Positions 16,372 through 48,000 of a DNA stretch of 64,000 nt are shown here, in pieces. Made by a program: the position numbers and the translations under genes. The stretch covers positions 310,001-374,000 of the forward strand of contig JAUGWO010000042.1 in the NCBI GenBank assembly GCA_049724395.1, read 5' to 3'. The notes under the pieces were generated by a model. That model was not told where the DNA came from, searched no databases, and saw only the letters and a list, made by a program, of their open reading frames with translations. This stretch comes from Spongospora subterranea f. sp. subterranea (lineage: Eukaryota). Each line of letters begins with the position of its first letter. The first letter of the stretch is position 1.

Positions 16372-19227
16372 TCATGAACCAGTAAGCGTACGACGATCCT
16401 CAAAGAAAATGGAATTCGACTGCCACTCAATGTCCCGTTTGAGATAGCTTAAAGCGGCAATGTTAAAACCAAGTAGATCTTTCTGTGCTCGTAACTGCTC
16501 CCGCATCCCTTGCTTTAATGAAGACAAAAGCGTGAGCATATCGTTAGATGCAATCATACGCTGATGGTGCAGCTGAATAAGAAACATTGCACATCGGACA
16601 CACAATTCCGTGCCGTCGTCTCCAGCACATATAATCTCCTCTAGCAAAACCATTAACCGTTTCGCGTATGCAAATGGCAGGACCATAAGAATAATATCCA
16701 GTTCGCTTGGGCGGGAGGCCCTTAAGACTTTCAGCAAAAAGGCAGAAGAAGGCAACCCCAATAACATTAGATGTGGAATATGCTTTTTCTTTGATAACGT
16801 TGCCTCAGCCAAGGCGGCTTTGTCAGCTTCAATAAAGTCAATTGCTTCCATTAACCGCTCACCGGTCTTTACGGTTCCAGTAGTTGTTACTTCAAGAGCA
16901 GGAACTGATTCAAACGTGCTAGGGTCCGGTAAGCCAGAATTGGGCAATGCTCCAATTTTTCCAGCAGGCTTAGCAATGGCAGCTTCTTCAAATGCCTCCT
17001 CGAGGCGATTTTCTCTTTCCACATCGAGAAAAACTGAAATCCCGAATAAATTAAAGATTAATCATAATACGCACAACAACCAACTTACTTTGTTGCTCCG
17101 TCTGCGACCACTTGCGGATGGATCTATCATTGCCAACGCTAACCAGCGTTTGGCCTGACTTGGAAACAGCAAGGCCCCAAATCTCCGAATGATGACCTTC
17201 AAGCGAAAATACATGCTCAAATTTATCAACATCCCAAAAACGGATCTGGCAGATTGACTCATGGTTAATGGCACAAATTCAAAACGTATGAATGCATTAC
17301 CTGTTTATCCTTGCTGCATGTGAAAACGTAGTGAGTGTCAGGCAAAAATTTTACAGACATAACACTGTCATCATGTGCAAGTAGAGATTTATGACAGTCG
17401 CCAAAATCGAGTCCCCAAATTTTCAAACTCTTGTCGGCACCTGCTGAGCAAAGCAGAGTGCCATCTGAACTAATATCCATGGACAGGACAGGAAGCTTGT
17501 GCCCATATAGAGACAAGAAAAACTTCAAAGAATCCTCATGAAAAACCTAATGGACGACTTTTTAGAATAATAACCAGAAATCTTGGAATGGTAAGGTACC
17601 TTGATTGTAGAGTCTAACAGAGATGCTGCAATATATTTACCGTTAGGGCTGAACTTCACGCACATGACATCATCGACCAAACGAAGAGTTCGTGTGTGGA
17701 CGAACCCAAGCGTCTTCTTCCTTTTTTTTGTCACTGTGTCTTCACTATCAACAAGTTCAAAAGCCCAGAACTTGACTTCTTTGTCTGCACCACCAGTGGC
17801 AAATCCGCAACCATTGGGGTGCATGTCCATTGACCAGACAGCCCCAGTGTGGGCCTTAACACGTTGGGTAATTTCAGCAGCCCCTATTGAATACAGTTCG
17901 AGATCACCAGTTTTAGTGCCAACGAGAACATGTTGATCTCCCGGAACAAAGGCGCAGCAAAGACCATATCCCGAAGATAACGTTCGAATAGACTTATGAC
18001 TCTGCAAGTTCCATACTTTGATAGAGCCATTGGAAACAGTTGCCTGAAAATCTGTGGATTAGTTAACACAAAAAACATCAATGAGGAACGCACCAAAACG
18101 GTTTCATCTCGACTAAGAGAAGCGGCACGGACGCCTCCTCTGTGCCCACCATCTTCTAGCATATGGCACGGGTGTAGCACTGTTGCTTCCGTGCTTAGTC
18201 CTTTTAGATTATAGACGTGAATGGCGTTGTTAGCTAGACCGATGGCGAACTTATTCGCAGAAAAGGCGAAGGATCTCTGATTACTCTCAGTACGAACTAT
18301 ATTTAAATGCTCGAGGGCATCTTTGGGCAATACTTGTGGGATCGCGGGAGCTGCATCGCAAATAGAATCATCGGATGGGCGGTTTTCCCTGGCTCTTTTC
18401 AACCTTCGAGTGATGTGTTTCTTCATGGCAGCTTCAGATCGCAACTGCCAGAGCTCCAATACCTTTCCGGTTCCCTGAACTCCAAGGAAATTTCCATGAA
18501 AGCGAACTTGACTGATCCTTGATGTGTCGTTACGTAAGATTGGGCCAATAAGCTTAACTTCATCTGCTTGAATTTCCCAAAGGTAAAGTTCCGCTTCACT
18601 TGCTCCTGAAACTAGATACTTCATCTGAGAATCGACATCCAAACTCCAAACTTCGTTCCGATGACCAGTAAGCGTCTGAACACAATGTTGCGTGTCCATT
18701 TCCCAGACTTTGATAAATGTGTCTTTGGAAGCGGATAGGAGTCGATTATTGACGAAGCAGATATCAGTGATGGCGGAGACATGTCCTCGTAGACGATATA
18801 ACCCCGTTTGACTAATGATATCCCATACGATGATATCGGTATCATTACTACCCGAACCCAGTCGAGACCCATCACTGCTCACTCGCAGACAGGTCACTCC
18901 TGATTTATGGCCATGCAGTGCCACCTTACACTGACCGGATCGGATATCCCATATGCGGATAGACCCGTCCGAATACCCAACCGCCACCTGGTTGTCGTCA
19001 GGGAACGCGGCGATCGCACTCACCGAGATTGGCTTCTTGCCTGGATTTTCCTTCGGGGGACAGAAGCTGGACACAAGAACACCCTGTTTCACATTCCAAA
19101 CTTGTAGCGCTTCAACTGCGCCGCAAATTGCCAATCTACCAGCTTTGTCAAGTATAACACTGCTTGATGGGCTAAAGATTACACCAAACGCAGCCGTTTG
19201 TTCATACCGTAAATAAGCTTTCACCAT
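16372..19227 (-). CDS. WDR3: WD-repeat protein 3 / U3 snoRNP protein Utp12 (Dip2), multi-exon
   Basis: N-terminus [13 protein letters not shown], many WD40 repeats, [28 protein letters not shown]-terminal Utp12 domain ([16 protein letters not shown]). Confidence 0.95.
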
Positions 19228-20677
19228 ATTCGGTTTTGACGCGAATTTGGCAGTGAAAAAGCAAACATCAGATTCTTCTTGTCGGAATCCGTCACGGACT
19301 TTTTGAAGTCCGTGAAATAAAAATGTATATCAGCTCAATTTATACAAGGAAAAAAGACCATTAAATTATCAATTATTCTGCTGGGGATATCAACTGCTCA
19401 GGTGCCGAGGAACCCATTGCTCTGGTAAAACTCTGCAGTACAACGGTGAAGTCAATGTAAGCTTGCGAATCGATGAGACTCTCTTCTTGTTCTTCCCTTA
19501 GAATCTGAACAAAGGTCTGATTGAATATACCTCTATTGCACGCGAATACTGATGGCGGCATTCTATCTTTAGTGGGAATAGTTCTGATTTGTTGATGCTC
19601 GTTGGCCTGGCGTACCTATACTCGCATTTTTGAATCACAATAATGAAATAATCGAATAGTGTGATACTTTCTCCATCACTGCGGCAATGTTTAAACCTGA
19701 TTCTCCCTCTGAACTATTACCATCTTGGCGGCATAAGGACTTAACTTGAGCATTATTGGATACAGACGACCTGTACGAGAAGTTTGCGAATTAGTAGGTG
19801 TATATGCTTAATCAATGTGAATTACGCTGAATGATCAAGGTTGCTATACGATCCATTTAATTTCCAAGGAATAACCGGCCTGTCTTTTGTCTCAGATGGC
19901 CTTTTGGACAATGAAGGGATACGCCTCGGCTTTGAGATCCGTACGCGCTGCATCAACGTCTTTACATCTTGCATGGGCTCAATCGATCCTATTCCGTGCC
20001 AGCGGCCCTCCCTACAAACCTAACGAAAGATATGCACGATGATGACATTAACAGTTTACCATCAAGAGCCAGTAGTGTTTGTCACCGTCTCATTAAGTCA
20101 CTATACTCTTGATAACAGCCAGTCATTGGACCAGGCAAGTGCTCGAGTAACAGAACTTGAGGTAATTTATCAACATTTTTGCAATGATTTCTTGAATATT
20201 TTTGATTTTTTCTTTACAGTAAAGACATGCACAACGTTATCAGCGATCGTGGTCCAAACATGGCAAAATCTGATTGCTATTTGTACGCTGTCGCAATAAA
20301 AGCAGGGCATGTTTATTAATCTATAAAAAAAAAGGAAAGGGTTCCTTTGAGTTAAGCATCATTACCATGCATTTACAGAGATGTGCTGGTATAGGAAAAG
20401 GGTGCAGAACACAGAATCAACCACATTGGACGAATGTCCGTTTACTGGAATTTCAATAAATGTCCTTCTTCGAATCCTGCAAGTTGCAATGAGTTGCGAC
20501 TTGTTTGAAGTTGCCACCAGTGATTCTCTCATTTCGCTTCACCGTTCCGATAGAGGGTACAGTGTCATCCCCGTCACGGCGCATTTTTTTGGTTCCACTT
20601 GGCTGATCTCTTGGTCTCAGCCCTTTGTGCAAACACGAGTCTGTGAGTGAGATATAGATAACCTGTGTCATCGGTCA

Positions 20678-21961: not shown

Positions 21962-23274
21962 AATATTGCCATTTTTTTATATCTGCCTTTCTCAAATGCC
22001 TTTTCTAAGAGGCACCAATTTGAATTTCAAAGGCGGGATTTACATCGAATGTGTTTGTTCACTTCATATTGTAAAGGTTGTGCGCCCAGTTGGAATCTTA
22101 TCCCAACCTTTTGTCTATCGTCTTATCTCGATTACAGTAGATTCTTCGGCCTTTCCCGTCTGCCTTGCTTCTCTGATTCCGATTATTTTCAATCCTGCAC
22201 AATCTGTTCAATGCGCGGTAATTTCTTGGCGATTTCTTTTATGGCTTGACCGCCCGATATTATGTGAAAAGGTAGCTGTGCTGTGTTTTAACGTGGCGCC
22301 TCCTTGGGGTTTTCTAGGACTTCTGAACCGCCTGATTGTTGTTCTGCAAGCGTATAAAATAGTGAGGCGCAGTTTAACTTTCGCAGCAATTCAGCTATTG
22401 TTGCTCGAAGAACCGGCTTCGTGAGTCGGTATGTAAATCATCCAGGATGTTATTCAATCCGTATACTTTCAATTTGTATCCATCGTTATCAGAATGCTCT
22501 GCCATCCACATCTCTATATGCCTTTGTCAGTAAATACTAGTTGCAATGCTCCAATTCAGGTATGGGAGACCGTTGCTGTCCCGTTGTCCAGTATTTGATC
22601 ACTAACTCGATTCATTGGGGAATAACTGTTTCCGTCCTGGTCGTTTTTTACCAGGGTGATCTGGAACACATAAATAGCCAATCGCGATTGTTGTTACTGT
22701 TGAGTCATGCTGTATGTCGGGCGCCTGTAATTGTTTTCGAATCGGGTTTTCGTCTCACAATGTCTCATTTCTCGAAGGATGCATCTTGTTCCCACTCGTT
22801 CACGAATCCACCCAAAACAAACCTGAACTTATCTTCGGCGTTAAGCCAGTTGGACACTCAGGCGACAAAACGAAAGCGTAAAGCAAAGAATGTCACAAGT
22901 TATCAATGCCCAGTCAAGTCTGATCACGATCATGATGAGGAAATGTCAGACAAGGTTAATGAGGATTCTTAACACTGCTTGAGGTTATAGACCCCAACTC
23001 GGCGTTTTTCAGTATTTGCCCGATCGCGCGTCCATGCTTGTTTACATTCCCAAATCATTCACCGATTTCAGATGATAATAAAGAACATTTTCTGTCGATC
23101 TGAACGCTTCCCCAGCACGTCGCCAAGGGATAGGTCCAGACTGCGAATTGACCAAAGGTCTGTGAAATTAATGCTCGAACCGGTTTGTGTCTACAACTTA
23201 TTCGAAGTAGTTTATATATTTAGCGGGTAATTATCCACTCTGAACAGACGACTTATTGGAGACGAAGACGGATA

Positions 23275-26200
23275 TCAATCATCTTCGCTCATCAATGCAG
23301 TAGTAATGTCGTCTTTCGAGAACGACGAGTGGCCAATGAACTTTGAGAACACAGAAAGGATGACACTAATGCACAAATTCCTACAGAACGACCCATGGCC
23401 GAAATGAGTGTCGTTCAGGCAGACTGCACATCGACCAGAACTTACGAAAACAAGACGGTGACGATGATCATATAGGAGAGGAAGTACCAGGTCATATTCC
23501 ATCCACGAACCCTTATTGCTGCATACATTATCTCGTGCCAGTTCTACCAAACAATCACCAGTCAATCTGACAATCCATCGCCAAAAATTCGATCATCAGA
23601 ACCTACGTCTTTGACCAGGATTTGCAGCAACGCCAGTATGCTATCGGAAAGGCTGTCGAAATTAGTAAACGGCCGATCATCGTCGGGAAGCAAATCGAAC
23701 TGGTTCGACAGGATCCGAATCCCGATCATGGCGTATATGTAAATGAATATGATCAATAGAATCATGAGATCTTTGAAGACGGGGACGATCTTCAAAAACA
23801 CAAACACTATATGGCGGGTCGATTGTGTCTGGGTGAATATTCTCATCAAGGGAAGAGCGAGAAAAAATCGAAAGACGTCCTGAGAAGTGCTGTAATTGAC
23901 AGATAATCCATCGATGGTGCGACATATCACCGCTCCAATCAAGGAAGCGCATACGATAACGATATCGGCACGATGAGCGAACTCGATCTCCTGCGATCGA
24001 TCAGAGCCGTCGTAGAGCGATGAGTTCCAGTAGACAGAAGGGGAGTAGATCACGATCCTGATCGTCATGTCGATCGTGAGCAGAACTAGATAGACCTCGG
24101 CGAACGTGTCGACGTATCGCTCGTGGTTCGTGTCGATCACTCCATAAAGGCAGATCACCGATATGAAGATCACCGTCATGATCTGATGGATATCGTGGTA
24201 ATGGCCATTATCAAACACGATCTGGCGAGCGATAAGACGCCAGGATCCTTGCACATGATACGGATCCGTCTTCAACTTGCTGATCGTTAACGCCTTCTCA
24301 TACCCTCTCACAAACCCTTCAAGTTCGATATACTCTCTAACAGGAGCGAATGTCGCCGATGAACCTTCTCTGTCTTTTCCTGGTTTATGAGGGGCGTCGA
24401 ACGCGCCTCGTTTGCTGCTCAGTGCCCGCAGTGCAGACGATGCTCGGGCAGGATTACTATCCGACCCAACAGACAAACGAGGTCGAATGTCGGACGGCCT
24501 GGACAGGTTGGCGATCGAGGATGAGCCCTTATCGCGATCGTGATTTGTCCCCACTATCGTTGATCTGCCATGGATCGGGGCGCGATCCATTCGATTAACC
24601 CCATCATCATCGTTGACCTGGTGCGATCGATGATGCGCTCGAACCGGCGACGCTTCTTCCTGTTCTGTTGTTGTTCGCTCACGTATCGGCCCCAGCTTTG
24701 AGCTGGACTTGTTCTTTGAAAATCGTGACGATCGTGGATGTGCCATAGACTCGGGATCGGATTGGGTTTTACTCGTTGATGATCGGGCAAATTGCACGAT
24801 ATCAGCGATGTTGGAGTCGGATAGCATTGCGTTGGTGGAGCGAAGAAATCGCTCGAAATCATGGACAGGTAGAACATTATCTTCATCGTTGTCGAGGAGA
24901 ATAAACGCTGCGATTATACCCGCTCTGCTGAACACACTTTCATATGCTTGCAGCTTTCGCTGATGATTATGGAATGAGTTCTGGAACGCTCCTATCATGA
25001 TTCCGAGCATTAGGAACATGCCAACCATAACCAGTACAATATAGAGAGTATATAATGCAGGATTGCCGTTCAATAAGGGATAGAGGACTTCGCTGAAGTT
25101 GGACGATGACGATAGGAATATGAAACAGGTCGTCATCGAGCGAACAATGTTGTTGAAACTGGAGCTCAATTGCTGAGCGTTGATCCTGGTCTGGAACAGA
25201 ACTAGGCAGATACATGACGATATGATGACGAGATACATGTACATGATGATGATGTTGACAGCGTCGATACAGGATCGAACGAACAGCTTCAACGTCTTCA
25301 ACGATCCCGAGTTCATAAACAGATAGAGAAACGCTCTGGATGGAACAACATACTCAATACTGGAATAGGGACGGGAACTGGCAATCAGGACCCAATCTGA
25401 AAGGATAATGATGAACATGGCGATAAGACCAACATCTCTCCATCGTAGACGGGACGATGATATTGAGTTGATGAGCTTGTTCCGATCCCATCGTGGGTCG
25501 GATCTGGTGGGGGCGAACCGAACCCAGATGTATTTGGTGAATATCCTGGCGGTGATCGAGGTGAACTCAATGGCGAGACAGATTCCCTCGGCCCCGATCA
25601 CCATCGCCGACGTCCCCTCGATCGCCATCGCATCGCCCGTATCCGGTTTACAGAAGGAGAGGGCGATGTGAATGGCGGTGATGGCGGTCATGATCAGCTT
25701 CACCGATCGGCTCTGGACCAGCTTATAGACCCGCAATGGCAGACCCGACTCGAGCTTCTCCAGCAGACAGATATGGAGGATATTCAGACCCGATCGCCCT
25801 AATCCAATCGCCGATCATTATTCACCGGAACAGATCACGACAACCCCCTTTACCGTCTGTGATATGACCACGAGCACGATTCCATGAATGGGCCCGATAA
25901 TACTCATTGGTTATTGGGAAATCAACTTTATCGATATGTCCTCGTTCTTGTACTAATGAACACGCTCTGGCTTCGTTGATCAGTGTTTGAATCGCCATCT
26001 TATTATCCAATTAGAGTTCATCCAATATTCAAATACTGTTAACAACTCACCTTGAAATCGGTCAATTCTCTGTATTTGATTCGTTTATCGTTCTGTTTCA
26101 ACTTCCTAATGGAATCCAATAATAGTGTGAGAGGGGGTGATTTACCCGCTCCTGAATGGGCAACAGATATGATCGAGTTGAGGGATATGATCAACATGAT

Positions 26201-29200
26201 AATACATAGGGTGATAACCAGGGTTCGTGTGTGGTTATTGTTGAGATGTAATGAGAGGGATTCGATAGGGACAATCACGATCATGATCGGGGGATACGAT
26301 CGTGATAACGAGGACATCACATATCCCATCGATAATGGCTGGAGAATATCGCGATGGATTAAGAACGGGTTCCGATCGGACAGGTTGATGAGACCAGGGC
26401 GCTGAGCGATATACGACACGAGATTGGACAGATCGGTCTGAGCGCGGTCAGATGAATCAACGGCTGATTGGTTGAGAAGCGATGACGATGATGCGATGAC
26501 ATTGAGACCAGATCGGCCATCGTGATCCGGATATGTTCCTAATAGCGATAACGATGATGGAGCTGGTGATGACGACAGCGATAACCGGTCTAATCGACGG
26601 GATATCGCCAGCGATCCCAACTCCACCAACACAATACAGGTTCGGTTGGCGATGGCGGTGGCGGTCGTGACCAATACCGACAGATCATCTCCTCCTGATA
26701 CCGATCGGCCCAACACAATCCCAATATCATTATCGGATAACGGGCCGATATCACCCCCATTCCCCGAACCAATCTCGGGATCATATTTCTCATCGACCAA
26801 CGCCAATCCCGCTCCGTTATCGTCATATCTGAACCCTTTCAGGGAATTGTCCACAGAGCACCATGAATATATTCCAGATAGATCAAACGACATATTGTTA
26901 TTCCTCCACCTGTTCATCGTCTTCTCGATCATATCGCCATTCACCATCTGCTCAGGATCGGTCGCATTACCATAGGCGAACGCGATCGAGACCAGAGCCG
27001 ACGTGGTATTCGCCGAGGCGATCATCGATTGGAGAGACAGATGAGCTAATTGGGTATTGAGGGCGAGAACGTGATTGAGATACGATGTGATCGCCGAGTC
27101 GATGTTGATCGTGTAGACCATCCACAGAGCGGATGGGGCGATGATCATCGATAACAGACAGGTGTAATGGATGATGTGATGGGATCGCGACGACGATAGA
27201 CCATAATGGTAATTGTGGTAATAGAGATATGTCGCTGTCGATATCGACAGGATCACAATGTCGATATATATCATGTAGTCGATATCGTGCACATAAACTG
27301 ACGAATCCGATCGGGATAGGACGGTGAATGTCAATCCCGATTGGGAATAATTCCATATCTGATGAGGATTAGGGACAGTTCGCTGTTCCTTTACCAGATG
27401 ATCATAGTCGATATCGGTGATGATATCGCCAATATTACGATTAAGGGATCGATCAGAATCAGCGATGATTGTGCCCGATTCGTGATCGAATATGATGATC
27501 GATTCGGATCTCATTCCATGATCTGATAGGAATCGCCCTAGTGTTCTGTTGATTATTGTCAGATCAATATCGGCGATGATAAAGCCGTTGATCGGATGAG
27601 GGGGATCAACAGATGGATTAGCGAATGGGGATATACAGAATATCGAAGGGATTGATGATGACGATAATGGGGTGAGATGAGGCGATAATACCCATAAAGG
27701 GAATTGGATCGGGGAGGAATAACGGGACCAGATATTGAGGGATTGGTTATAGGTGAGAAAAGGGGAAGAATGGTGTTGATCAGGGGAACAGGGGGAACAG
27801 GTTGAGATAGTCCCAGATGGAGCAAGACGATAGGCGGCGGCGACGGGGGAGATATCGGTGGGATTGGCGATGTGGATTGAGGTGATGGACGGGATGAGAC
27901 AAAGGTGTTGGGCGAGGAATGAGGGAGAGATGGGATCGGAGGACGATGAGGATATGATGAGAGATATGGCCATATCGATAGGGGATAGGGCGTCGTCAAC
28001 CGATAAACGGGCGAGATGGGATAACGTCTCATAGGATATGATATTAGGGGCGGTCAATATATCATCTAAACTATCGCCATAATCACTCCACACCAGATAT
28101 AATCCCGTTGATAACACCAATAGGGACGCGATCGACACCAGCCCGATGATCAGACCGGATGATAAACCCGACCAGGATGACGATCGGGATGATGGCGATG
28201 AAGGGAGGGACGGTGCATCATGATGGGGATCAGGAGCCGCCGCCGCCGCCCCATTTGATGGTTTCACCATCGAGAGATGGGGAAAACGGTGACGGCTGAT
28301 CTGTAATTGGCGACGAGAATGATGCCGATGAGGTATATCGTGAGCAGGTTCAGGTTTATAGACCAACATCGATAAGATATTGTCGATCTTGTTGATGAAT
28401 CCGCCTTTGGTCAGATTGCGGTTCAATCGGCACTCGATATCCCTCATCATTACTATAGTAGAACATATCTGATTGATGATAAGGGATATCTCAGGGCGGA
28501 ATTGCCGCCTTGATCCCTTGTTCAGGGCGAATATCGATCGACATAACCGATTGTATTTGGACATCTGTTGCGATGATGGAATATTACGGGTTAATATTGA
28601 AATTGGTGTTGAGGGGGAATCGGTTCTCATCATCTGGATAATGTCGTTGAACGACTGAACATGTTCGATCTTGTCCAATCCTATCCATTGCTGAACGACA
28701 CACCCACACACACGACGACGATCAATCAGGGCCGAGCGATAATGATGATAATCGTCCCCATAATTACCTGTATCAATAGGGTGTTAAACCCTCCCGAATT
28801 CCTCTCTTTATCGTCCCCATCGTCATCATATCTCGTCAAACGCCCTTCCTGAAGCGCTTCCTGCGATAGACTTTTACTGGCGATCCCCCCGATTCCAATG
28901 GGGTTTGTCGATGATGATCTGATCATTCTGTGATTATCCCTAATATCTGATACAGTTCGTCTATGTTTTAACCCGCTAATACTATTGGTATTAGCAGTTG
29001 TCGTCGCTTCTCTATGATTATCGTTTGGATTATATTGTTCAAGGACCTGGGCGATATCCAATCCCTCCAGATACTCCAATGCACACAACAGGCGTTTGCA
29101 ATCCGATATGATCTGGGACCACGATTGCTCGTGCTCCTCGTTCGATAGATCCTTCCTGGTCGGATTGCGAATGGCGAATATGGGTTTGAGGCGATCCCAT

Positions 29201-29379
29201 AATGATGGTGGTGATGGATTCGATGATGGTGGTGATTGAGTTATTCCTGGGTCTAACGAGAACTTGTTGTGTCGATAATGACTGGGGTATCTGGTCATTA
29301 TATCGCCAATTGTCTCGTCATCATAATCGTCATCATTACCAGCTAATCCATCACCATTCCACCCACTGATACTGCTCAT
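23275..29379 (-). CDS. Channel gene A: N-terminal domain, two TM-flanked dCache-like modules and a two-pore-channel-like 2x6TM unit (1930 aa, 6 exons)
   Basis: Exons 29379-28768, 28690-26051, 25998-25854, 25798-23607, 23543-23446 and 23380-23275 join with GT-AG introns to 5793 nt in frame. Pore loops SFNNIVRSMTTCFIFLSSSSNFSEVLYP and NFDSLSDSILALLQILVKD/NWHEIMY; EF-hand-like AAFILLDNDEDN; Cache-like GFIIADIDL..IIIFDHESGTIIADS. Confidence 0.8.
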
Positions 29380-30599
29380 CCTATCAGATTCGAATATCTA
29401 TAATGCCTTGTAGTAAAGTACCGATTATTGATCATAATCTGTCGAACGTCATCATCGCCAGTAATAATGAAGGCCAAGACAGCAAACACACAAGTGTGCC
29501 CGATTGAGTTCAATATTACAACAACCACAGCATATCGTTTGTTTAACACAAGGTTTCAAAGGCTGAGATTCAACATTTATTCACTCAACAGCGACAAAAC
29601 AAATACAATGAGGTATTCGCTGGAAATTAACAAGACGAGAGCTAAATACCAAACCCAAGTAGAGTAATGATGAATATTTCTGTACTGTGTCGGAATAGTC
29701 ATAAAGAAGGGTCACTCAAATCAATAGTCAATATGAACAGCCGCCAATTCGCTCCCATCGTGAAACCTCTCCGGAATCTTGGCATTCCTCGATTGTGGGG
29801 TGTCAAAGTCGTGGGGAAATGATCAGGCGCTCTTGATTTGGCCCCAGGGGCGTTTCCAAAACAAGTGCCCTGAAGTTTTGAAAGCGCTTTGAAACATCGG
29901 TTGACAATTCGTAGCTTCATCCGCTCCAAACTTGATTACAAGTCTCACCTTCCCTCCCTTCAAAAGATTAGGATGTGTAGAAACACGTGTCGGAATGTGA
30001 AGAAGGATAATGAACATTTTTCAGTCACGATCAAGTACATCCCAAAATCAAAGAAACAAAGGGTCTGGCAAATGGCTGAATAGCACAGGCGTTTGTCGTC
30101 ACAACACTGCCTGAGGTTTTGTTCATGGGTGAAATTGTAGAGATCCAAGAAAGTTTCGATTTGCAGGAGGCGCTGCCGAGGGCAAGCTTATGCAGGCTGG
30201 AGAAACTCGTGAAGACCGATGGATACAGGGCGTTCCCATAGTTTATAAACAAACATGGGAGAACGGCAAAGTGTCGTGGAGCGATTTCTCACATTCCACT
30301 TTTCGTGCTGGTTTTCCTGACCAGGCGAATACAACAACTAAACTGTGCTAGTTTGATGGCAGAGAGCAACAATATAACGGCTGGTCGTCGGGTGTGTACA
30401 TCGACTCAACCGAACCGCATCAGGATTGTGCTCAATAATCGTTCAGTGCTCGGCCAAAACTTGCCCAATTCATCACGCTTTGATCTACCCGACCCATTCG
30501 TTTGCTTAATACCCTGAACAATCCGATCTCACAGTCCGCTTCGTCATTTCAATGCTTTTGAGGAGTGGAAAAAACTGGGGAAGTGATTAAGCAGAATCT

Positions 30600-31460
30600 G
30601 GGCCCAGTGTGAGATATCGAATGGCGTGATTGTGTTGTTGATATACCTAACAGATGTATTGCATTATAGGAGCATCACGTGCCAGAACACGAACATGTTG
30701 TTGAATGCGGAAACCTTGTTCAAATGGACATTCTACGAGTTCTGCACGAGATTACCAAGAAAGATCACCCTCAGTACATTATTCAACGATGAGCCCCATC
30801 TCCTGTCGATCCCTAAATAAGCCCTATACACAATCTATTCTCGCCTTTCCTTCGAGCTCTGGGAATCCCACACCAACTGCAACAGCTCCATCGGTGTTCT
30901 TGGGTCAAGCAATAAGCATAGAGCTTTGAAGAAAACACTCTTCGATTCTATATTAGTGTTGAGATGACGCTTGGTTCTGTTGAACAATACAGGAAGTTTT
31001 ATGAGAGATATATTTTGTAGGCAAAGTACTTTTCGCCGTCATCGATGCGATTAATTACATCGAATAAGTTTCCTTATGAAACATTGTTTCGTGTGGTCTG
31101 GATGTGCCCAGCTATAAGAACCTCTTCAAGAGTTATCTGTGTAGAAAGGGTGTGAAGGACGATTACAGATCTTTCCAGGGCGATGTTGGAGTTGGGTGTT
31201 TCCAAACGATGCTGAATATATTCCCGAATTCCTGACACAAAGAATATGGTAATATTCGCACTCTGTACGAGCGTCTTCTACAAAAGACGTTTTTTGTTTC
31301 TCTCGACAATGTTTGCAAGTTATTTATCGTGATTGGTTTAGGTGAATTAGTAACACAGGCTAAAACGGCGGCTACGATGAGCGACATGCCACAAATAGTG
31401 CATTTGGAAGGGGAAACAGACTGAAAAGGAATTCCGCCAATAACGACGATGATCATGTCA
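30600..31460 (-). mobile_element. Possible decayed hAT-like DNA transposon remnant between the two channel genes
   Basis: Short motifs TDGA and RRWGSSL in broken frames resemble hAT TDGA/TRWNS; no long ORF. Confidence 0.25.
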
Positions 31461-31637
31461 TTAGGGCCATTGATTTCTGCCTATTCATATAATCATTATT
31501 CTCTCTGGTAGTGAAATCAGTTCCGTTCAAGTGTCGTTTGCGATGTCCTCCTGAATGAGAAATACCCCTTCCCATCCGTCGTCCATCGTCATGTCCTTCA
31601 TACCAAGGAATAGTGTCATTTGAGGAACAATCGCCAA

Positions 31638-34600
31638 CTAGTTCAATGCCTTGGAGAAGAGCGATAATATAATCCCAAGACAGAGATTCCTAAAACGATA
31701 TATGAGACGTGGACAAGAAGGCGATGATCGTCAATCCCAACTTACGTGAATATGATATTGATTAACAACATATAGGACAGGAAATACCATGTGATATTCC
31801 ATCCATGAACCCTTATTGATGAATACATAACCTGGTGCCAGTTCTGTCAACACCAGAACCTTATCAGTTAACGAAAGCGATCACGATCGTGTGGTCTTAC
31901 ATCGCTAACCAGGAGCTGGATCAGGGTTAGGGTCGCCCCAGACAGATTGTCGAACGTGGCGATCGGTGTCTGATCGGACGGAAGACGATTGAACTGGCCC
32001 GATAACAGGTTGACCCCAATCATTCCATAGATGTAGACAACCAAAATCAGGACCAGGATCAGGTTTTTGATCGCCGGGATGATCTTCACGACAACATGGA
32101 CCAGATGGCGACACGAGTTGGTCTGGGTGAATAGGCGAATAACAGGTAGAACGAGGAATAGGCGAAACCCATATCGATCCTGATCGTAATCGAACGGGGT
32201 CGTGTTGATCGCGAACGCGATCAAGGTGCCGATTAGGGCGATCAGAAGTAAACACAGATCGGATCTGTGGACGAACTCTGTCTCTTCAGCCCATCGCCCT
32301 GGTCGATAACTGCTGTAGTTCCAGTATCGATTTGGCGAATACAGATAGATCTTGATGGCGATCTCGATAGATGATCCGAATACGGCGGCGATACAGATTA
32401 GGTCGATGGTTTGTTGGGAGGAATGATCGATAATCCCATAAAATGATATCGCTGTAATATATAGAATGGTGACGATCTTCATCAACCGATTGTAGTACAA
32501 GTTCTCGTATAGGATCGAGGCGAAATCGTGATGAACGGGTCGCAGAGCGATATGATTGGATAACAACAGGACCCGCTCGATAATCGTGATGAACTGCTCC
32601 AGAGAGATGTGACGAGGATGATGGAGATCGGAATGAGCTGTTGGGGAAGACGATGGCGATGCAGGGAGATGGGGCTTCTTAACCGATGGGCGCTTGTTCT
32701 GTGATGATGATTGATGAAATCCTAATCGGATCACATCCTCGACAACCGCCCCTAGTTCGTCGGCGACGATATCAGGGCGGATATATTGCAGGAACAGGTG
32801 CAGATTTTGACCCCGATATCATGTTGGACTCGTCATCGTCCAATAATATGAAGGCGGATATGATCCCAGCCCGACCATAAACCGCATCGTACGCCTGCTT
32901 CATCTGTCGCTGCTTGTCGAACGCCCAATAGAATCGGGCGATGAACACGCCCAGGACGGCGAACATTCCTGTGATGACCAGGATGAATAAGAACACGCCA
33001 TATAATGGATCAACACCAATCGCTGGATAGATGATATCGCTATAATTCTCGGCCGTCGTCACGAACACGAAACAGGTCGTCATTGATCTGACGATGTTGG
33101 TGAAACTGGAGTCGATTTGATTGGTATTGATAAGGGATCTGAATAGAACTAGACAGATTGAACCCGATGTGAGAACGAGATATAGGTATAAGGTGAGGGC
33201 GGACGTGGCCGATATCGTGGTCCTGAGGATAAGGCGAAGGGTCTGGCGACAACCAGAGCTGTGTAATAGGTAGAGCAGCGCCCTACAGGGGATCACATAC
33301 TCAATACTCATATTGTATATCGTCATGATCAACCAGTCGATCGCCACAACGGTGAACAGCACGACCAGGACGATATCCTTAACCTGTATTCGGGTTGTGG
33401 ATAACGGGTGGAATATGCTCTTGTGATTGAGATGGGGATTGATTGATGTGGGCGCGAAACGAACCCAGATGTATTTGGTGAATATCCTGGCGGTGATCGA
33501 GGTGAACTCAATGGCGAGACAGATTCCCTCGGCCCCGATCACCATCGCCGACGTCCCCTCGATCGCCATCGCATCGCCCGTATCCGGTTTACAGAAGGAG
33601 AGGGCGATGTGAATGGCGGTGATGGCGGTGATGATCAGCTTCACCGATCGGCTCTGGACCAGCTTATAGACCCGCAATGGCAGACCCGACTCGAGCTTCT
33701 CCAGCAGACAGATATGGAGGATATTCAGACCCGATCGCCCTAATCCAATCGCCGATCATTATTCACCGGAACAGATCACGACAACCCCCTTTACCATCTG
33801 TGATATGACCACGAGCACGATTCCAAACGTGCTGATGATGGTGATGAATCGGTATTGGACAGCCATCATCCCCCGATATATACTGTGATCTGTATAGGGA
33901 GATGGCGCTAGCACCATGGACCATCCTCTCGATCGCCTCCTATACACCATCATTCAGATATCAGCCCATAGCCCATTACCGCTCAGCAACAACATGATCA
34001 GCACCTTGAAATCCTTATACTCTTTGAACTTGACCCGTTTAGTATTGAAATGATCAGATTCAAACGATGTTCTGATCGATAACGACGATCCCAAATTTGA
34101 TCGTGTTGACCCTGATCTTCCCCTGATAACCCTCTTAACACTGTTCAATGATCTACTGGCAGAATGCGATAATAGGCTGAAGGTGATTGTGATCGTGATG
34201 GCGATGATCAATGTGAGAGTGTGGTTATCATCGATAATATCGTTGAATAACGATCGCGACACCATGACGGGTATCAGCCAATTGTATAATGATGTGATAT
34301 TGGTCTGCAGATTAGCCCATGACGATGGCTGCAGAGTATCTCGTATAATATTGCACACCGATTGGGAATCACAAATCAACAGGTCGGGTTTATCCTTGAT
34401 GAACGCGATCAGCTCGTCGATATCCGGCTGTACCGGGTCCGAGTTCTCCCCGATCCCAACCGGACGCGGCGATCATGTTGGCGGATTGATAATGGCGATC
34501 GTGGCCGATCTCTAATACGGCCATGGCCAGATCTGATGACGACAGCCTCGCCCTTGTACTCTCCAGTACATCCTGGATCGATGATGACCCGATCTCCACG

Positions 34601-37455
34601 AACACCGACCCGCTTCTGTTCAGATCTCGCGTAGACGGCTGGATCATGTTCTCATTCTTCCCTGAATGGGATCGCGTCATGAAATATCGTGTCTCCCCGT
34701 TGTCGATGAACCTGGTCGACAGTATATCGTGTGTCGGTTGGTCAAGTTGATGACGAACATGGTCTGGGGATTGATCGCAGAATGTCCTGATGGTCTGTTG
34801 CGATCGCAATCCCTGTTCGCGATAGCAGCCAGGCGACCCCGATACGGGAGTGATGATCGTCTGAGATGGGTCTGGCGATAAAGGGGAATACCCTCTGATC
34901 GACCCGTTCACCGCCCTCCAATATATCGATCGATACGGTATTGGTCCATAATCCCTTTCCCAAATCGCTGATGCGCTCAATAGTATTCCGTCAACACCGT
35001 CATCGTCATCGCCGTTTGTCGTATTACGTCCCCGATTATTGACGACCCCTTCGATAAGCCCCATGACGTGATCGGCCGAATCTAGTGAATATCGAATGGC
35101 GTTTCCCGTCTCAAGCGCCAGACTATCCATAATCCGATCCTGTTGTGTTTTCATATTGTCGATGGCGATGTCGGTCCATATCAGCCATATTATCAATGGT
35201 GATATCGATACGATCACCCTGATCCCCAACCTCATCTTATTGCTGTTCATCGCGCTCGCCCATGGTCGATCTCGCCCGGTGTTGCTCTCCATGAAGAGAG
35301 TAGAGTTGCCAAGGGAGCGGCTGGACGATCCATGCCTTCTCCCCCGTTTCGAATCCCTCTTCATCATCACCATATCGATGATGATCGTGAACAGGTAAAG
35401 GGTTATCGTCAAACCCGTTACGATCGAGATTCCAATCAGGAGCAGAGTATGTGATGAACCGATTTCGATAAGCGATGGGATGGCGATAACCGACAGATGA
35501 GTTGGCGACCATCGAGGGCTGGTATCGGATTGAGGAGGATGAACAGCGTCTCGTATTTGTAATCCCATTGATTATATCAGGGATAGGATATCCAACGACA
35601 TCAGCTAACTCATTCATAGTCGACGCTATCAACATATCGCTATGGCGGTCGACGACAACAATATCGCCGGCCGGTGATTGCTGGGAGATAAACATGCGAT
35701 TGAGGAGCGATAATGACAGATCAGCAATGATGAATCCATTTCCATATCGCCATGGACTGATGTATGATATGAATGGATTGGCGCTAGAGACGTTGGTCCA
35801 ACCGATTCCCTGATGGCGCCAAGATCGTAGCGCCTCCTCATACGAGAGGACAGGCCAATCACAGATGAGAGAGGATGGGAAATATTGACCAGGATCAGAT
35901 ACGATCAGGACCTGAACACATTCGCGACCTGGTTCAGCGGTGAATAGAACTGGGTCATGATCAGGCTGGGGAGGACGATGAACCCCTGTCGTGAGTCCAT
36001 CGCCATTGAGGAGATATAAGGTGGATATGGATGGGGACTGATCGAGTTGGGACGAGAGATAGGAATGAAGATCGGATAGGGGAGTGTGAGGTGAGAGGAG
36101 TTGGGCACAATCAAGATTGGAGGAGATGATCGACATGTCTATACCAACCTGATCGATACCGGTCGCGATCAGATCAGCACCCACCATGGTCAAGATCCCT
36201 TTCTGCAGACTGGATATATTCCCCTGTGATAGCCGATAGGACTGAGCAGATACCGACCATAACAGTGAGATCCCCGATATGAACAAGGCGATGGCGATGG
36301 CGGCGAACAGGGAAGGGGTGTACATGGACAACTTCAGGGATTCGTCTAATGTGAAGAATAGACGTGGCCGGCCAGAGACAGGCTCTTCAGTCTGGCCCGA
36401 TGCTGATCGGTTGGGTATTACGTCGAATTGGCCATCGTCAGGAATGGCTATCAGGATCGCCAACAGATTATCGATCTTGTTGACAAATCCCCTGACATGG
36501 GTCGACATGGGGTGATACTCTAATTCCCTCAATATCACCAATGAGGTGGCAGTCTGCTCCAATAACGTATGGGAGACAGATGAGGTTAATGGGCTCTCGT
36601 GAAGGGGCCGGAAGATCAGCTTGCACAACTCCACGTAATCGTCCTGCTTTTCATGACTCGGAACCGAACCTTCGCAAATGGCGCTCAAAATTTCGAATTT
36701 CGACTGTTCTCGTATTTGAGATACGAATCTTCTCCGAAACAGCTGAAACTTCTGACGACAGGGCAATCTATCTTGTGCAATTAAGGCCTGATAGTGTTCA
36801 TGGAACAGCACCAAAATCAGAAGAAGGCAGGTCGATGTACCTGGACCCCAAATACCTGAACAGCATCCGATTTGAAATCCAGCAATGATTGTTGGACACC
36901 CCGTATCGTCTGATGTCCTTTCCGATATTCGACTAATGCCTTAACTAATGTCTGATAGCCGATATGGGCCTTCTTTGAGGATCGGGTCAAGTCGTGTTTG
37001 AACGAGTCAACTCTCTCTAACTCCATAGACGATGAGCGATTATGAAACAGTAAAGACCGTTTGGAGGGTTTTGGAGCGGAAACGGGGTCATGTTCGGATA
37101 TGGATATAGGAGTGTAAGAACTCAGGAACTTGTTGATGTCCATCTCTTCCTCAAGCCATTCCATAGCACAAATCAGCCGCTTGAATTGAAGCAACCGAGG
37201 AGAAGACGTTGTCTGATATGTTAACCGATCAATAACTGGGGAACCATAATAGTCCATCTGTTCATCCCCTTCACGAGGATTAGGTTCTCGTAACCCACTG
37301 TTGTTCACCTCACAATGTTCATCGTGAACGAGGTCCAACGCCGCCGACCTGGTTGTGCTGGTGCCCAGATTGAACAGGGGGTCGGCGACTGAGCCAGGAT
37401 CGCCATCTGTAGGCATCATTGGACCATGATGAATGGTTCCTCCAATACCCTCCAT
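31638..37455 (-). CDS. Channel gene B: paralogue of gene A (dCache-like x2 + TPC-like), interrupted by three +1 frameshifts in this sequence (pseudogene or consensus errors)
   Basis: Collinear similarity to gene A with equivalent intron positions; pore loops TTCFVFVTTAENYSDIIYP and LIQLLVSD/NWHQVMY; Cache-like ISTLYLLNGDG..GWTNV..GFIIADLSL..IVVVDRHSDMLIAST; frame changes near 35565, 34455 and 32812. Confidence 0.75.
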
Positions 37456-39612: not shown

Positions 39613-41251
39613 ATGGCCGAGTTTGAGACTATTGATGAAAACAAACTTGGGGCCGCTGCAGAAAAATTCGAATGCAAATTGGATCAGTCCGAAAGAACCC
39701 AGCTGGATCAAGATTTACGTGAAGCATTAGGTACGACTTCAACATTGTTGCTTTGTTCATATATGAGGTATTGACAATATAGCACAGAACGCGACAGGCT
39801 AATGGTCGGTGATGTGTCAAATGTGTGCCAGACGGGTGGGCTGATATTTGATGATCCAAAGATGCTTGATATTCAGGTAATGTCAAACGAGTTAGTTTTG
39901 TCTAACGCATATATAAACCATTGTCTTCAGCGTCGTATTGTCTGGGATGCTGTGAAAACGTTAGGCTGGAATATAATGGCAGGAAACACTGTTAATATTA
40001 TTTCGTTGGTTTGAACGATGACTAAAGTAATGCTGCTTCTTACTTCGGGTTTTATAGTGTTTCGTTGCCAGTTCGTATATTTGAGCCCCGTTCATTTCTG
40101 GGTCGACTGTCAGATGGGTGGTCCTGTGCTCCAATTTTATTGCGGAAAGCAGCATTGCAAACCGACCCTGTTGAAAGGTTCAAATACGTAATAGCGTTTG
40201 CCATAGCAGGTCTACACGTCAACATCCGGCAATGGAAACCATTTAATCCTATCCGTAAGCTGGAAGATAAGAATTACATTCGGAAGTTCTTTCAAAGCTC
40301 TGTTATGCTGTCTGGCATATAGTTGGGGAGACATTGCAGTCAACCTTTCCTGATGGTACTCAAGTATATCTTGAGCAAACAAGCCATCATCCCCCTGTTT
40401 CCCATTATCAGGTGTTTGGAGCGGATGGGCTTTGTCAGTTACTCTCCCGATCTTACTGTTCAGTATCATTCAATTTAAGTGTATTCAGATAAACTGCATG
40501 GATGTGCTCAATTTGCAGCGTCATGGCGAGGAAATGCGCTGAAAGCGTATTTTGCTAAACGCTTATTGATTTTCTGGGGCTGATTTTGGTTTGTGTTAGA
40601 TCGCAGAGTGGTCCTAACATTGTTGAATTTTCCGATGGCACATCTATATCATATACACTGCCATACCTTTGGTTAAGTGGCGTCCTGTAGGGTTCATCAA
40701 CATGTTCCGATACTCTCGACTTACGTCAGTTTGCGTGTGTTCCAGATATGGAGACCGTGTTTCCGAGTATTTAGGGCAGATGACAATACGGGACGAGCAG
40801 AACAACATATCGTGTGAAGTTGTATTTCATCCTGATGGTGTTGGCTATCTGAAGTTGGGCTATTCCTTCCTGGACAATATAGTATCCCCTTTGTTGACAT
40901 TTTCACAGAAGCTGGTTTGTGTCAAGCCCTAGCCCATCGGACACTTTTCGTGGTGACATCATCAAGGACGGCAATAAGGTGGACCAGATTGATGGATCGT
41001 GGATTGGCGAAATAAGAAGCAATGGTGTCGTCCTATATGACGTTAGACAGAAACTGGATGCTTCAACCGTCCCAGCCGAAAACCCTATACCGTCAGATTC
41101 ACGATTTAGAGAGGATTTGAAGGCCCTTTCGGAAGGAAAGTTTGATCTCGCGCAGGCCAAAAAAGTAGAACTTGAAGAACTTCAGAGATCTGACAGAGCT
41201 TTGAGGAGGCAAGGTTATGAACAAAGGGAAAGTGCTAGCAGTGATCTGTAA
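39613..41251 (+). CDS. Oxysterol-binding protein (short ORP/Osh type), multi-exon
   Basis: SLPVRIFEPRSFLGRL, DPVERFKYV, KPFNPI/LGET, fingerprint EQTSHHPP, PSDSRFREDL..AQAKKVELEELQR. Confidence 0.92.
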
Positions 41252-44360: not shown

Positions 44361-45000
44361 TGATGCCTGGGGATGCGGTGAGTAAAGGGTGTAGAATGAG
44401 AGCGGGCGCGACAAGGCGCAGGCGACCTTGGATAAGAGTGAGATAACCGTGAGGAGACAAGCAGCAGCAGATAGAGAGATATAAACGGGCACGGACTAAT
44501 CACTATCAATGAGGATCGGCCGATCAGGATACGGTCGGTCGGATAAAGGACGGGGTTAACCGGATAAAAATCGAATATAGCAAGACCGCGTGGCAACCAA
44601 GGCAATTGTAATTACATGAATGGCCTTCCTAGGAAGTGACGTCTAGAATTGCTAATAACTGTACGGCGTTTATACGGGATCACTGACTAATACTTAGACT
44701 AAGCAAAACCAAGTAAATAAAAGCTTTATTGAGCGAAGTAGTTATTCTGCGAGCATTTGGAAATGGATCCGTTGACCAGATACGACTCAGACAATGAATC
44801 CGTGGGGGTCAATTCCATGATCAATCACAGCATTAATCATCATCCGTGCTAGCACGAATAAAATGCGTGCGGACTTTTGGTGTAATCATACATTAGGTGA
44901 TTGCAATTCGAATACGTCAAGGACTGAGCATTATTCCTAGTGCTGTTGGTTGCGGTTCTAGTTAGTCTCTCTCAGGTTATTAACAGGCTGCCCACTGTCC

Positions 45001-48000
45001 ATGTCGTCCTTCATGCCTCGGGAATGGAATTCAGTGGTGGCATCTCCTCCGCCTCAAACATCGAAGCCAGCGCAAGAAAGCGTGCGGTCGACGTTACAGC
45101 TGCCGCCACGCCAGATCACAACCGCAGCCGTAGCAGCTACTGTACCATGTCGATACACTAAGGCGGAGATGCTCGCACTCTTCTCTCCCTCTGATCGCGC
45201 TCCCTCAGATTTTCAGTTCAATATTCCCATTGTCTCGTCAGACTGTCTATTACCGGTCAACTCTCAACCTCCCTCCAAGGCCGAGTCAGAGATATATGAA
45301 TCTGGATCTTGGTATATGCCAGGTTTTCATCAGCGAACCGGGCCTGTATCTGCCGGTTCCGCTCGGCCTAGGAATGTGGCTGGGAAAGGGTCCCGTCTTT
45401 CGTTCCCTCGGGCTCGATCCGCGGTTCCTGATGAACCACCGAGCCCGCAAATAGCGAATACAAAGCCGAGCTGGCGTCATGACGATCGAGATATTCCTGG
45501 TGGCCATGACAGTGGCCATGGTTATTCGGATCACAGTGCGCCTGAACATTTACTGGGAGAAAGCAAACGTCCAGTGTGGGGCGCTCGTAGGGATCATGTG
45601 TTCACTGCCGAAACGCCGATGCCTTTTACCACTCCTGAGCGCGAAAGGTCGTCAAATACTCCCTCACGGTCCTCTGTAAATTGTCGTTCAGACGCTGCAT
45701 TATCATGGCGTCGCTGCTCAGATCAGAGCGAAGGTCAAACCACACCACAGTTGAACCAACCTGCACCTCGTCCGTTGCCAAACGCTTCCGATGTTCTACC
45801 TACTTCAAAGACGGTTTCTAATGTAGCTGGTGCTTCCACAACTGCGACTGCTGCCCCGTTAAAGAATCAATCGATACCATCAGTGCAACCTGCGATCGAG
45901 GACTCCAATAGGGAGCCAAACCAAAAGCACAGTAGCGCTAGTTTAAATTCGGTGGAGCGTATTTCTGTTGCGGATGACATCCATCACCCTTTGGATCAAG
46001 CTCCGGGCATCATCACAGATTCGTGGTGGTACCAAGATCCCTCTGGAACAGTTCGCGGTCCGTTTTCTTCCGAAGCTATGCGAGAATGGTATAACCAACA
46101 ATATTTTCATTTGACCCTCCCCGTCAAGAACCGCATAGACGAAGCGTTTGTCCCATTAGGTGCGTTGTTTCTTCAAGGTAATCCGGCATTCCTGGATCAT
46201 GTACCCGTTATTATGGCAGCGCCTTCCCCGCAAATGCCTGTTTCTAGTGCAGTTTCGAGCAATCAGCAGTCTGGAGATCCAAGACTTCTGCGATCTTCCC
46301 ATGCTATTCAGCAAATGCCGCCTTCGGTTGTATATCCTCCCAACTATCGACCAGAAGTTTCTAGTAGTTATGCATCGCCTTCGTATCCCTGCCTGTTTGG
46401 AGTCACTTCTCAGTTTGGCCACATGGGAATCTCATCGGCAGTAAAGCATACTTCAGTTCCGACAGAAGGACCTAAGGTGTCGGATATGGCTCCTGCTCGG
46501 TCGGCCTGGCCAAGATTCAGCTCTTCTAGCGTTCCATCGCAAGCTACTGTTATCGACCCTTCTGTAGAAATGCCCCTTCAGGTCCCACCTGTTGTGGAAT
46601 CGTCACTGTTAACAATTCCGGATCACGTCGAGAGTTCTGAAAGCGATGAACCACAAAAATGTGCTGTCGGCGCTGCAGCAGTTGAAGAGGCTTCCCTCCC
46701 TTTGAATGAGCCAGAATCAACGGTACTTATGCCAGATGTGGTATCTCCGGTCGAACCTGTCAAAGCGGTGCTTATAACTCAAAAAGACGCTCAAGTTCCA
46801 CCATCTTTATCAAATAGCAGCGCAGTGCCATCTGGCGAATCCGTTAAGCGTGGTGAAAGCCAATGTGAGCCTCCCCGTGCGCGTCTGCATGATTGGTTTG
46901 GCAGTTCTATCAAAGACGAAGAATTGACGCCAGGCAAGCGAAGCAAGCCCTTAGCGAGCCTTGTTGAGATACAGCACGAGGAAGAAGCATTAATTCTGCA
47001 CCAACAAGCGGAGGCGAATGCCCTGAGGAAACAGAAGGAGGCTGAGCAAAAACTTCAGGCGTCGTCTACTCTGGGATCTGTCTGGAGTACTGGATCTCGC
47101 GTGTCCCAATCACTGCTTGAGATTCAAAAGCAAGAGGAGTTGATCCAGACTGAGGCAAATACCAAACCGGCTCCGGCTTCTGGTTGGGCTTCTAGAATTG
47201 CTGTTACGCCAGTCGGCAGATCACAACCTGAGATCGGTTCATCTCATTGGGCACAACCTCCGAAAGCGGCCGTTAGTATTCGTCAGATTCAGAAAGAGCA
47301 GCAAAAGGTCGTACAATCCCACGCTCGGCCTGCCACAACTTCGGCCTGGAGCGCAGCCGTTGCCGGGCCAGCCTGGCCTCGTGCACAGGCTGCTGCAACG
47401 CCGGCCTGGTCCAACGGCCCCGCTCTGTCTAGGTCTCAAGGTGCCAGTTTGAGCGGACCGTCTAGCTGTAATGATGCTCCAATTTCTCGTCCTGAAGCAA
47501 TATTATTAGCGCCACAGTCTGCCACTCTCGATCCTGCCACGAACCCGATATCTTGTGAGGTTGGTAATTCTCCATGCTTATCCGATGCAGACGAGAGTTC
47601 GAGCGGTTCAGAAGACGATCTGTTCTGGGCGTCAAACGATAGGAGCAGTGTTACGAATTCAGCCTCAGAGTAAACAGTCAAGCGTATCACGACCAGGGCT
47701 GAACAGCAATGAGTTTGGTGGACCAAGACTCTCTCCTGCATTTCAGCAATGGTGCAAAGTACAAATGGAGGGTATTTCTGCTGACTGTGGTATGTTGAAT
47801 TTGAAAGTTTAGCAGTGTCCTGTTTCTAATCACAATCTTCACTCAGACATTGCACTTGCTGAATTTCTCATTACGTTGAAGTCACCACAAGCTATTCGTC
47901 AATATATTTATGAATATTTGGGTCGTTCGTCCAAAGTAGAAGCTTTTGCAACGGGCTTTTTGCAGCATAAGGATTTTGACGAAGCGAAATTGCCTGTTAA

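Follow-up and report, generated by a model that had tools for sequence, protein, structure and literature searches.

Can a single protein carry both an extracytoplasmic chemical sensor and the pore of a two-pore channel (TPC)? The question is raised by two tandem minus-strand genes, A and B, in a 64,000-nucleotide stretch of the Spongospora subterranea f. sp. subterranea genome (assembly GCA_049724395.1, contig JAUGWO010000042.1, positions 310,001 to 374,000; hereafter the window, whose numbering is used throughout). A preliminary description of this DNA had proposed that gene A joins two Cache-type sensor modules to a TPC. We found that this fusion of probable Cache modules to a TPC-like channel is real and conserved and that it is apparently undescribed, with a fair chance of representing a new class of ligand-gated channel.

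Gene A (23275..29379, minus strand) was modelled by joining exons. The 1930-residue protein described earlier was reproduced exactly from six exons (29379-28768, 28690-26051, 25998-25854, 25798-23607, 23543-23446, and 23380-23275), separated by five GT..AG introns of 77, 52, 55, 63, and 65 nt, the only stop codon being the terminal one. The chain comprises an N-terminal cytoplasmic region, module 1 between transmembrane helices TM1 and TM2, module 2 between TM3 and TM4, a linker, and a channel of two repeats of six transmembrane helices (2×6TM). The model was supported by spliced contigs and by collinearity with PBRA_002472 of the clubroot parasite Plasmodiophora brassicae. Its key junction is the 52-nt phase-0 intron at 25999-26050, the boundary between the sensor half and the channel half.

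Transcript support was drawn from contigs of public runs (four used of the eight listed, none on record as RNA). Runs X1 and X7 gave identical figures and were therefore counted as one data set. No contig spans the whole gene. Three of the five gene A introns (52, 63, and 65 nt) were skipped at their predicted ends. The 52-nt intron was skipped precisely in one X1/X7 contig, with a depth of 5.4 and 56 letters on the shorter side; the last two introns (63 and 65 nt) were spliced in X1/X7 and in X2, which belongs to a separate study. The 55-nt intron was supported only by 11 loose letters of an X2 contig that match the beginning of exon 4; the 77-nt first intron was bridged by no contig in the runs used. 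The joined transcript was thus seen in part: the key intron is spliced in X1/X7, but an X2 contig reads unspliced through it.

This X2 contig would suit an alternative in which the main products of the locus are two distinct proteins, a sensor and a channel acting in trans, made through intron retention with a stop and initiation of the channel at an ATG. The retained intron does introduce an in-frame stop, an ATG stands immediately 3′ of the acceptor in gene A, and one P. brassicae paralogue has a channel-only model. Set against these points are the spliced contig, the Glu found instead of Met at the equivalent place in gene B, the lack of an intron there in a P. brassicae paralogue, and homology that runs ungapped across the join. 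Moreover, the X2 contig also skips a plus-strand GT..AG intron (26072-26125), so that it could either represent a transcript that keeps the 52-nt intron or combine sense with antisense reads. We consider separate products improbable as the main output. The spliced contig and the independent full-length P. brassicae models support the two halves of gene A as one polypeptide, as had been claimed. Altogether, X2 contigs skip two plus-strand GT..AG introns, one inside gene A and one just beyond it (~23156-23209), which suggests spliced antisense transcription across the locus. A plus-strand neighbour at 22541-22972 has far deeper coverage.

Is this architecture shared by other protists? When 5774 candidates were searched with the channel exon of gene A, a single longer protein emerged: PBRA_002472 of P. 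brassicae (1952 residues, under two NCBI accessions, CEP02207.1 and XXQ29725.1), which is collinear with gene A from residue 91 to 1928. Its unspliced open reading frame (ORF) calls leave the frame right after ‘AFK’ and ‘VKD’, which are intron positions of gene A. HMMER with gene A exon 2 against 1.84 billion representatives gave two matches, both P. brassicae clusters, and a word-seeded search for longer proteins, with the sensor ORF as query, gave none in 7978 candidates. The second P. brassicae paralogue (XXQ29723.1/SPQ93609.1) has the same layout, with models of 1714 and 1692 residues and a 712-residue channel-only model. In this gene, an uninterrupted 909-residue ORF connects the modules, by way of the linker, to the N-terminal segment of the channel, with no intron at the join. 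The two P. brassicae genes lie two accession numbers apart in three annotations (PBRA_002470/002472, XXQ29723/29725, and SPQ93607/93609), and this near-tandem pair has the same two filter types (KDNW and SDNW) as A and B. The correspondence of A to PBRA_002472 and of B to the second gene is based on the filters only, since both inner branches in the tree of five channel halves are open.

A profile of the channel half found four longer proteins among 7980 candidates, the best being the foraminiferan Nonionella stella EP01083_P188981; of the others, the two checked with Pfam are multi-repeat channels and one bears the name of a sodium channel. In the N. stella protein (2346 residues), four helices enclose two modules ahead of two Ion_trans repeats. 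It also has a 119-residue basic-to-neutral linker, the longer filter I, and KIDNIL upstream of TM1. It matched Pfam MCP-like_PDC_1 (E = 1.5e-5, with 25.8 bits falling short of the 27-bit cut-off) and contains two full YxxxxRxWY motifs, the amino-acid-binding Cache motif. Unlike gene A, it carries an extra SAM/Pointed-like domain (residues 422–486, E = 0.004), ahead of the KIDNxL motif, and has kept the amino-acid motifs. The search for the same architecture thus yielded two P. brassicae proteins and one foraminiferan protein, which the databases label ‘Ion transport domain-containing’ or leave unnamed.

The sensor half of gene A opens with a conserved helical region (28343..29112, residues 90–320; this and the following features lie on the minus strand), which spans intron 1 and carries no Pfam name. 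The region shows 24–31% identity among A, B, and the two P. brassicae proteins. It ends in KIDNxL, a motif common to B, both P. brassicae proteins (IDNxL), and the N. stella protein, to which the region gave a weak match of 15 columns. TM1 (28100..28156, residues 383–401, hydropathy 2.22) leads to extracytoplasmic module 1 (27299..28099, residues 402–668), which has four Cys residues, three sequons, and 4% Lys plus Arg. TM2 (residues 669–687), a short loop, and TM3 (residues 714–732) were placed by hydropathy within 27107..27298 and precede extracytoplasmic module 2 (26219..27106, residues 733–1028). TM4 (26162..26218, residues 1029–1047, hydropathy 2.58) continues into a basic cytoplasmic linker (25707..26161, residues 1048–1163, 17% Lys plus Arg). 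Within the linker, a conserved helix-like motif straddles the position of the 52-nt intron, and residues 1060–1120 show 26–39% identity among A, B, and the two P. brassicae proteins. A HAMP-like nature of the linker was considered and rejected: no HAMP match was obtained in PBRA_002472 (E ≤ 10) or in the second P. brassicae paralogue and the foraminiferan protein (E ≤ 1). Hydropathy and charge bore out the proposed TM–module–TM–TM–module–TM order before the channel, and the extracytoplasmic module flanked by two helices recurred in five family proteins. TM2 is weak in A (hydropathy 1.42) as compared with four relatives (2.06–2.51).

Are the soluble modules Cache domains? A dCache-type fold is probable for the modules of A and B, on the basis of ESM Atlas similarity, topology, the foraminiferan relative, and a weak structural hint. 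The top ESM Atlas matches scored 0.96–0.97, and dCache_1/PDC clusters scored 0.94–0.96. In a fold search with module 1 of B, bacterial extracytoplasmic sensor domains accounted for nine of the 50 chains listed, including the six longest alignments. In low-confidence models, the predicted order of secondary structures would fit a long N-terminal helix with two PAS-like subdomains. For module 1 of A, the assignment as likely dCache-type draws on ESM Atlas features and this helix–strand order, and for module 2 on the same two kinds of evidence and topology. Bacterial dCache_1 receptors (PctA type; dCache_1AA) likewise have a module of 220–310 residues between two membrane helices, with a long first helix followed by strand clusters and a C-terminal signalling part. 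Gene A differs from them in having two serial modules, an ion-channel output, and neither the YxxxxRxWY motif nor a Pfam match.

Several results weigh against this assignment. None of the four modules of A and B matched dCache_1 or the Cache clan in Pfam at E ≤ 10. AlphaFold models had predicted local distance difference test (pLDDT) values of 34 and 42 (34.3 for gene A exon 2), giving no confident Cache fold. The YxxxxRxW motif is absent in A, PBRA_002472, and the second P. brassicae paralogue, with one doubtful match in B. A PDB profile search with one alignment gave no Cache match, and one with another alignment, whose profile included the foraminiferan protein, gave a single match, 7k5n, at E = 0.5. 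Foldseek/VIA on the model of gene A exon 2 returned generic helical matches only, and Foldseek on module 1 of B returned nothing at E ≤ 0.001. Module 1 was not significantly related to module 2, nor were the modules to the foraminiferan ones, by hmmsearch or hhalign. The expectation that Pfam, AlphaFold, and Foldseek would return dCache_1 therefore failed, and the claim of dCache_1 identity retains the ESM Atlas similarity, the topology, and the foraminiferan relative in its favor. Taken together, the missing matches would agree with modules of another extracytoplasmic fold, whose likeness to Cache is superficial. We judge this improbable, because an ESM score of at least 0.95 is attained by only about one in 100 shuffled proteins (according to the tool's own note), and the modules are the same in size, helix–strand order, and position as the Cache-bearing ones of N. 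stella.

With respect to ligands, the dCache_1AA motif comprises Y121-R126-W128, Y144, and D173. An Asp occupies the D173-like position in module 1 of A, B, and PBRA_002472. A partial amino-acid motif in module 1 of B was doubted, since its Tyr-Arg-Trp residues sit on a predicted helix after the pocket.

What kind of channel follows the sensor? TPCs are dimeric cation channels of endolysosomal or vacuolar membranes. Pfam detected two Ion_trans (6TM) repeats in A and in PBRA_002472, in agreement with the 2×6TM claim, and gene A shares this plan of two 6TM repeats per chain with Arabidopsis TPC1 (AtTPC1; PDB 5dqq/6e1k) and human TPC2 (PDB 6nq0/8ouo). Repeat I (24966..25706, minus strand) is nearest to these proteins: in A, the best PDB matches were TPC2 (E = 5.6e-5) and AtTPC1 (E = 7e-4), and in B, AtTPC1 (E = 3.4e-6). 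Its filter is FLSSSSNF (25124-25086), and its S4 has one Arg. An EF-hand-like loop follows (24858..24893, minus strand), as in plant TPC1. This part of the claim held in that the loop aligns with that of AtTPC1, but the match is weak (Pfam EF-hand_6, E = 0.067), as it is across the family (E = 0.05–0.14). Repeat II (23345..24191, minus strand; Ion_trans) scores higher against Cav channels than against TPCs, which were also matched. Its filter LVKD/NW is split by intron 4, and its S4 has two Arg residues eight positions apart.

The T-T-x-N filter attributed to gene A was not found there. Filter I is SSSSN in A and TTAEN in B and, in HMMER alignments, is one residue longer than in TPC1 and TPC2, a length that the five family members share. 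Filter II (VKDNW in A, VSDNW in B), a V-x-x-N-W sequence, follows the V-x-N/G-N-W pattern of TPCs in part: V and NW are kept, with an Asp where AtTPC1 (VMGNW) has a Gly. In alignments, KDNW falls opposite KDGW of Cav3 repeat III. TPC1 and TPC3 have a charged voltage sensor in repeat II, which is functionally absent in TPC2. The two Arg residues of S4 also differ in spacing from the three gating charges of AtTPC1, given as R537, R540, and R543, three residues apart, in the accessible part of that study (10.1101/181578). Unlike TPCs, gene A has some 1100 further residues at its N terminus, which hold four helices and both extracytoplasmic modules. From its sequence, we classify the channel half as a TPC-related variant, because the plan is TPC-like while filter I and the voltage sensor depart from the TPC type.

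How might such a protein work? We propose a ligand-modulated, largely voltage-independent dimeric cation channel with small-molecule-binding outer modules, in which ligand, ion, location, and gating are all predicted; in our estimate, this picture has an even chance of being right. Its starting point is the single chain from sensor to channel, which the key splice join and the orthologues show. The four helices before S1 would place both modules, likely dCache folds, on the pore-loop side, facing either the exterior or the lumen of an organelle, and would leave the linker cytosolic, as judged from hydropathy, the basic character of loops, paired Cys residues, and sequons. Two chains would dimerize into a four-repeat pore, as family knowledge of TPCs suggests. 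Ligand binding may then shift TM4 and the conserved linker helix, which leads into the N-terminal segment of the channel and S1, and so open the gate, by analogy with bacterial dCache domains, which signal through a C-terminal helix. Voltage would have little effect, because the S4 charges are largely lost. The Asp of filter II would favor Ca2+ or non-selective cations, and the EF-hand-like loop could provide Ca2+ feedback. Ligand binding probably does not follow the canonical mode for amino acids, and a motile stage likely uses the protein to sense chemicals.

The modules could also be Cache folds in the same chain and yet, in this lineage, no longer gate the pore. They would then resemble alpha2delta in cis, with a part in folding, trafficking, adhesion, or tuning. 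As in ordinary TPCs, opening would depend on cytosolic Ca2+, lipids, or pH. The loss of the canonical ligand motif in four plasmodiophorid-type proteins, as compared with its two copies in the foraminiferan one, is consistent with this, as are the fast divergence of the modules and the retained EF-hand-like loop. We nevertheless regard it as doubtful. The TM–module–TM receptor layout and the conserved linker into the channel are kept, and two paralogues with divergent modules are maintained in two organisms. Furthermore, according to the available text of one survey, non-amino-acid dCache domains bind ligands without the motif (PMC8915833). The proposed ligand-modulated channel is directly testable as to its ligands, because the foraminiferan relative has intact amino-acid motifs.

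Gene B (31638..37455, minus strand), the paralogue of A, encodes about 1837 residues with X at three frame breaks and has the filters FVTTAENY and LVSDNW. Its five GT..AG introns (36855-36788, 34004-33940, 33794-33740, 31900-31844, and 31745-31690) occupy positions equivalent to those of gene A. The first and last were seen spliced in X1/X7 contigs, and the key intron was unbridged. The reading frame changes near 35.57, 34.45, and 32.81 kb, within 32780..35600 (minus strand), each break being close to a run of three or four G. For two of the breaks, no GT-AG intron of 30–120 nt and suitable phase was found; the third has a single candidate, of 91 nt. The tandem pair with a shared intron layout stood, but the assembled sequence of gene B does not form one open frame. 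Read with X at these places, it has no internal stops and aligns along the full length of A, with 26% identity in the N-terminal half and 40–44% in the channel. Gene B is no farther from the P. brassicae proteins than gene A is, which fits an assembly error or a very recent loss; the breaks reflect either an assembly error or recent breakage into a pseudogene. Gene B would be an old, expressed paralogue whose filters differ from those of A, either wrongly assembled from an intact gene or broken not long ago. A 378-nt tract of gene A (25507..25884, blastn), covering the linker end, intron 3, and S1–S2, is 98.9% identical to 33448-33825 of gene B, intron included, with 98% protein identity as compared with 41–42% in the remaining channel. 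Either recent gene conversion or assembly collapse would account for it.

The window also holds an ORF with a single RyR repeat domain (51957-52922, minus strand; Pfam PF02026, E = 5.8e-7). Other neighbors are LETM1-like (11039-11920, plus), WDR3/Utp12 (16375-19329, minus), an oxysterol-binding protein (40898-41248, plus), and a GYF-domain protein (44962-47670, plus).

Has such a protein been described? Glutamate receptors likewise join a binding protein to a pore. Characterized TPCs respond to voltage, cytosolic Ca2+, lipids, or second messengers, and the literature searched held no TPC with its own outward-facing small-molecule sensor. Among known systems, alpha2delta and CACHD1 also bring Cache domains to the outer face of a pore of the Ca2+-channel superfamily. 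They act in trans, with a nested dCache and a von Willebrand factor A (VWA) insertion, whereas the modules of gene A stand in cis, apart from each other, and lack the length for a VWA insertion, for which Pfam gave no match in the family proteins scanned. The accessible portions of two Cache surveys state a VWA insertion for all eukaryotic dCache_1 proteins examined (PMC8915833) and mention ion channels only as alpha2delta-type proteins (PMC4822843), categories that the layout of gene A does not fit. Neither Ion_trans nor Plasmodiophora occurred in the supplements of PMC8915833 (six files) and PMC4822843 (12 of 18 files). In line with the novelty claimed earlier, no description of a Cache–TPC fusion was found in the literature searched, as judged from listings, although subscription papers could hold a mention; no paper naming PBRA_002472 or its accessions was found.

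If true, the Cache–TPC fusion would be a new way of building a chemoreceptor channel, in which outside chemicals open a cation channel directly. The Ca2+-channel blockers La3+ and Gd3+ stop the chemotaxis of S. subterranea zoospores toward glutamine, as reported in PMC8921600. Ca2+-dependent zoospore chemotaxis is thus a plausible setting for gene A, to which that work draws no link. It is possible, and we put it forward tentatively, that these proteins form an undescribed Rhizaria-wide class of ligand-gated channels, spanning plasmodiophorids and foraminifera, each joining bacterial-type Cache sensors to a TPC in one chain, and supply the missing receptor that turns root-exudate chemicals directly into a zoospore-steering Ca2+ signal; A and B, which differ in sensors and filters, could pair, which would widen the ligand range. 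Gene A is a candidate receptor for the Ca2+-dependent chemotaxis of plasmodiophorid zoospores and, as such, a possible target against host finding.

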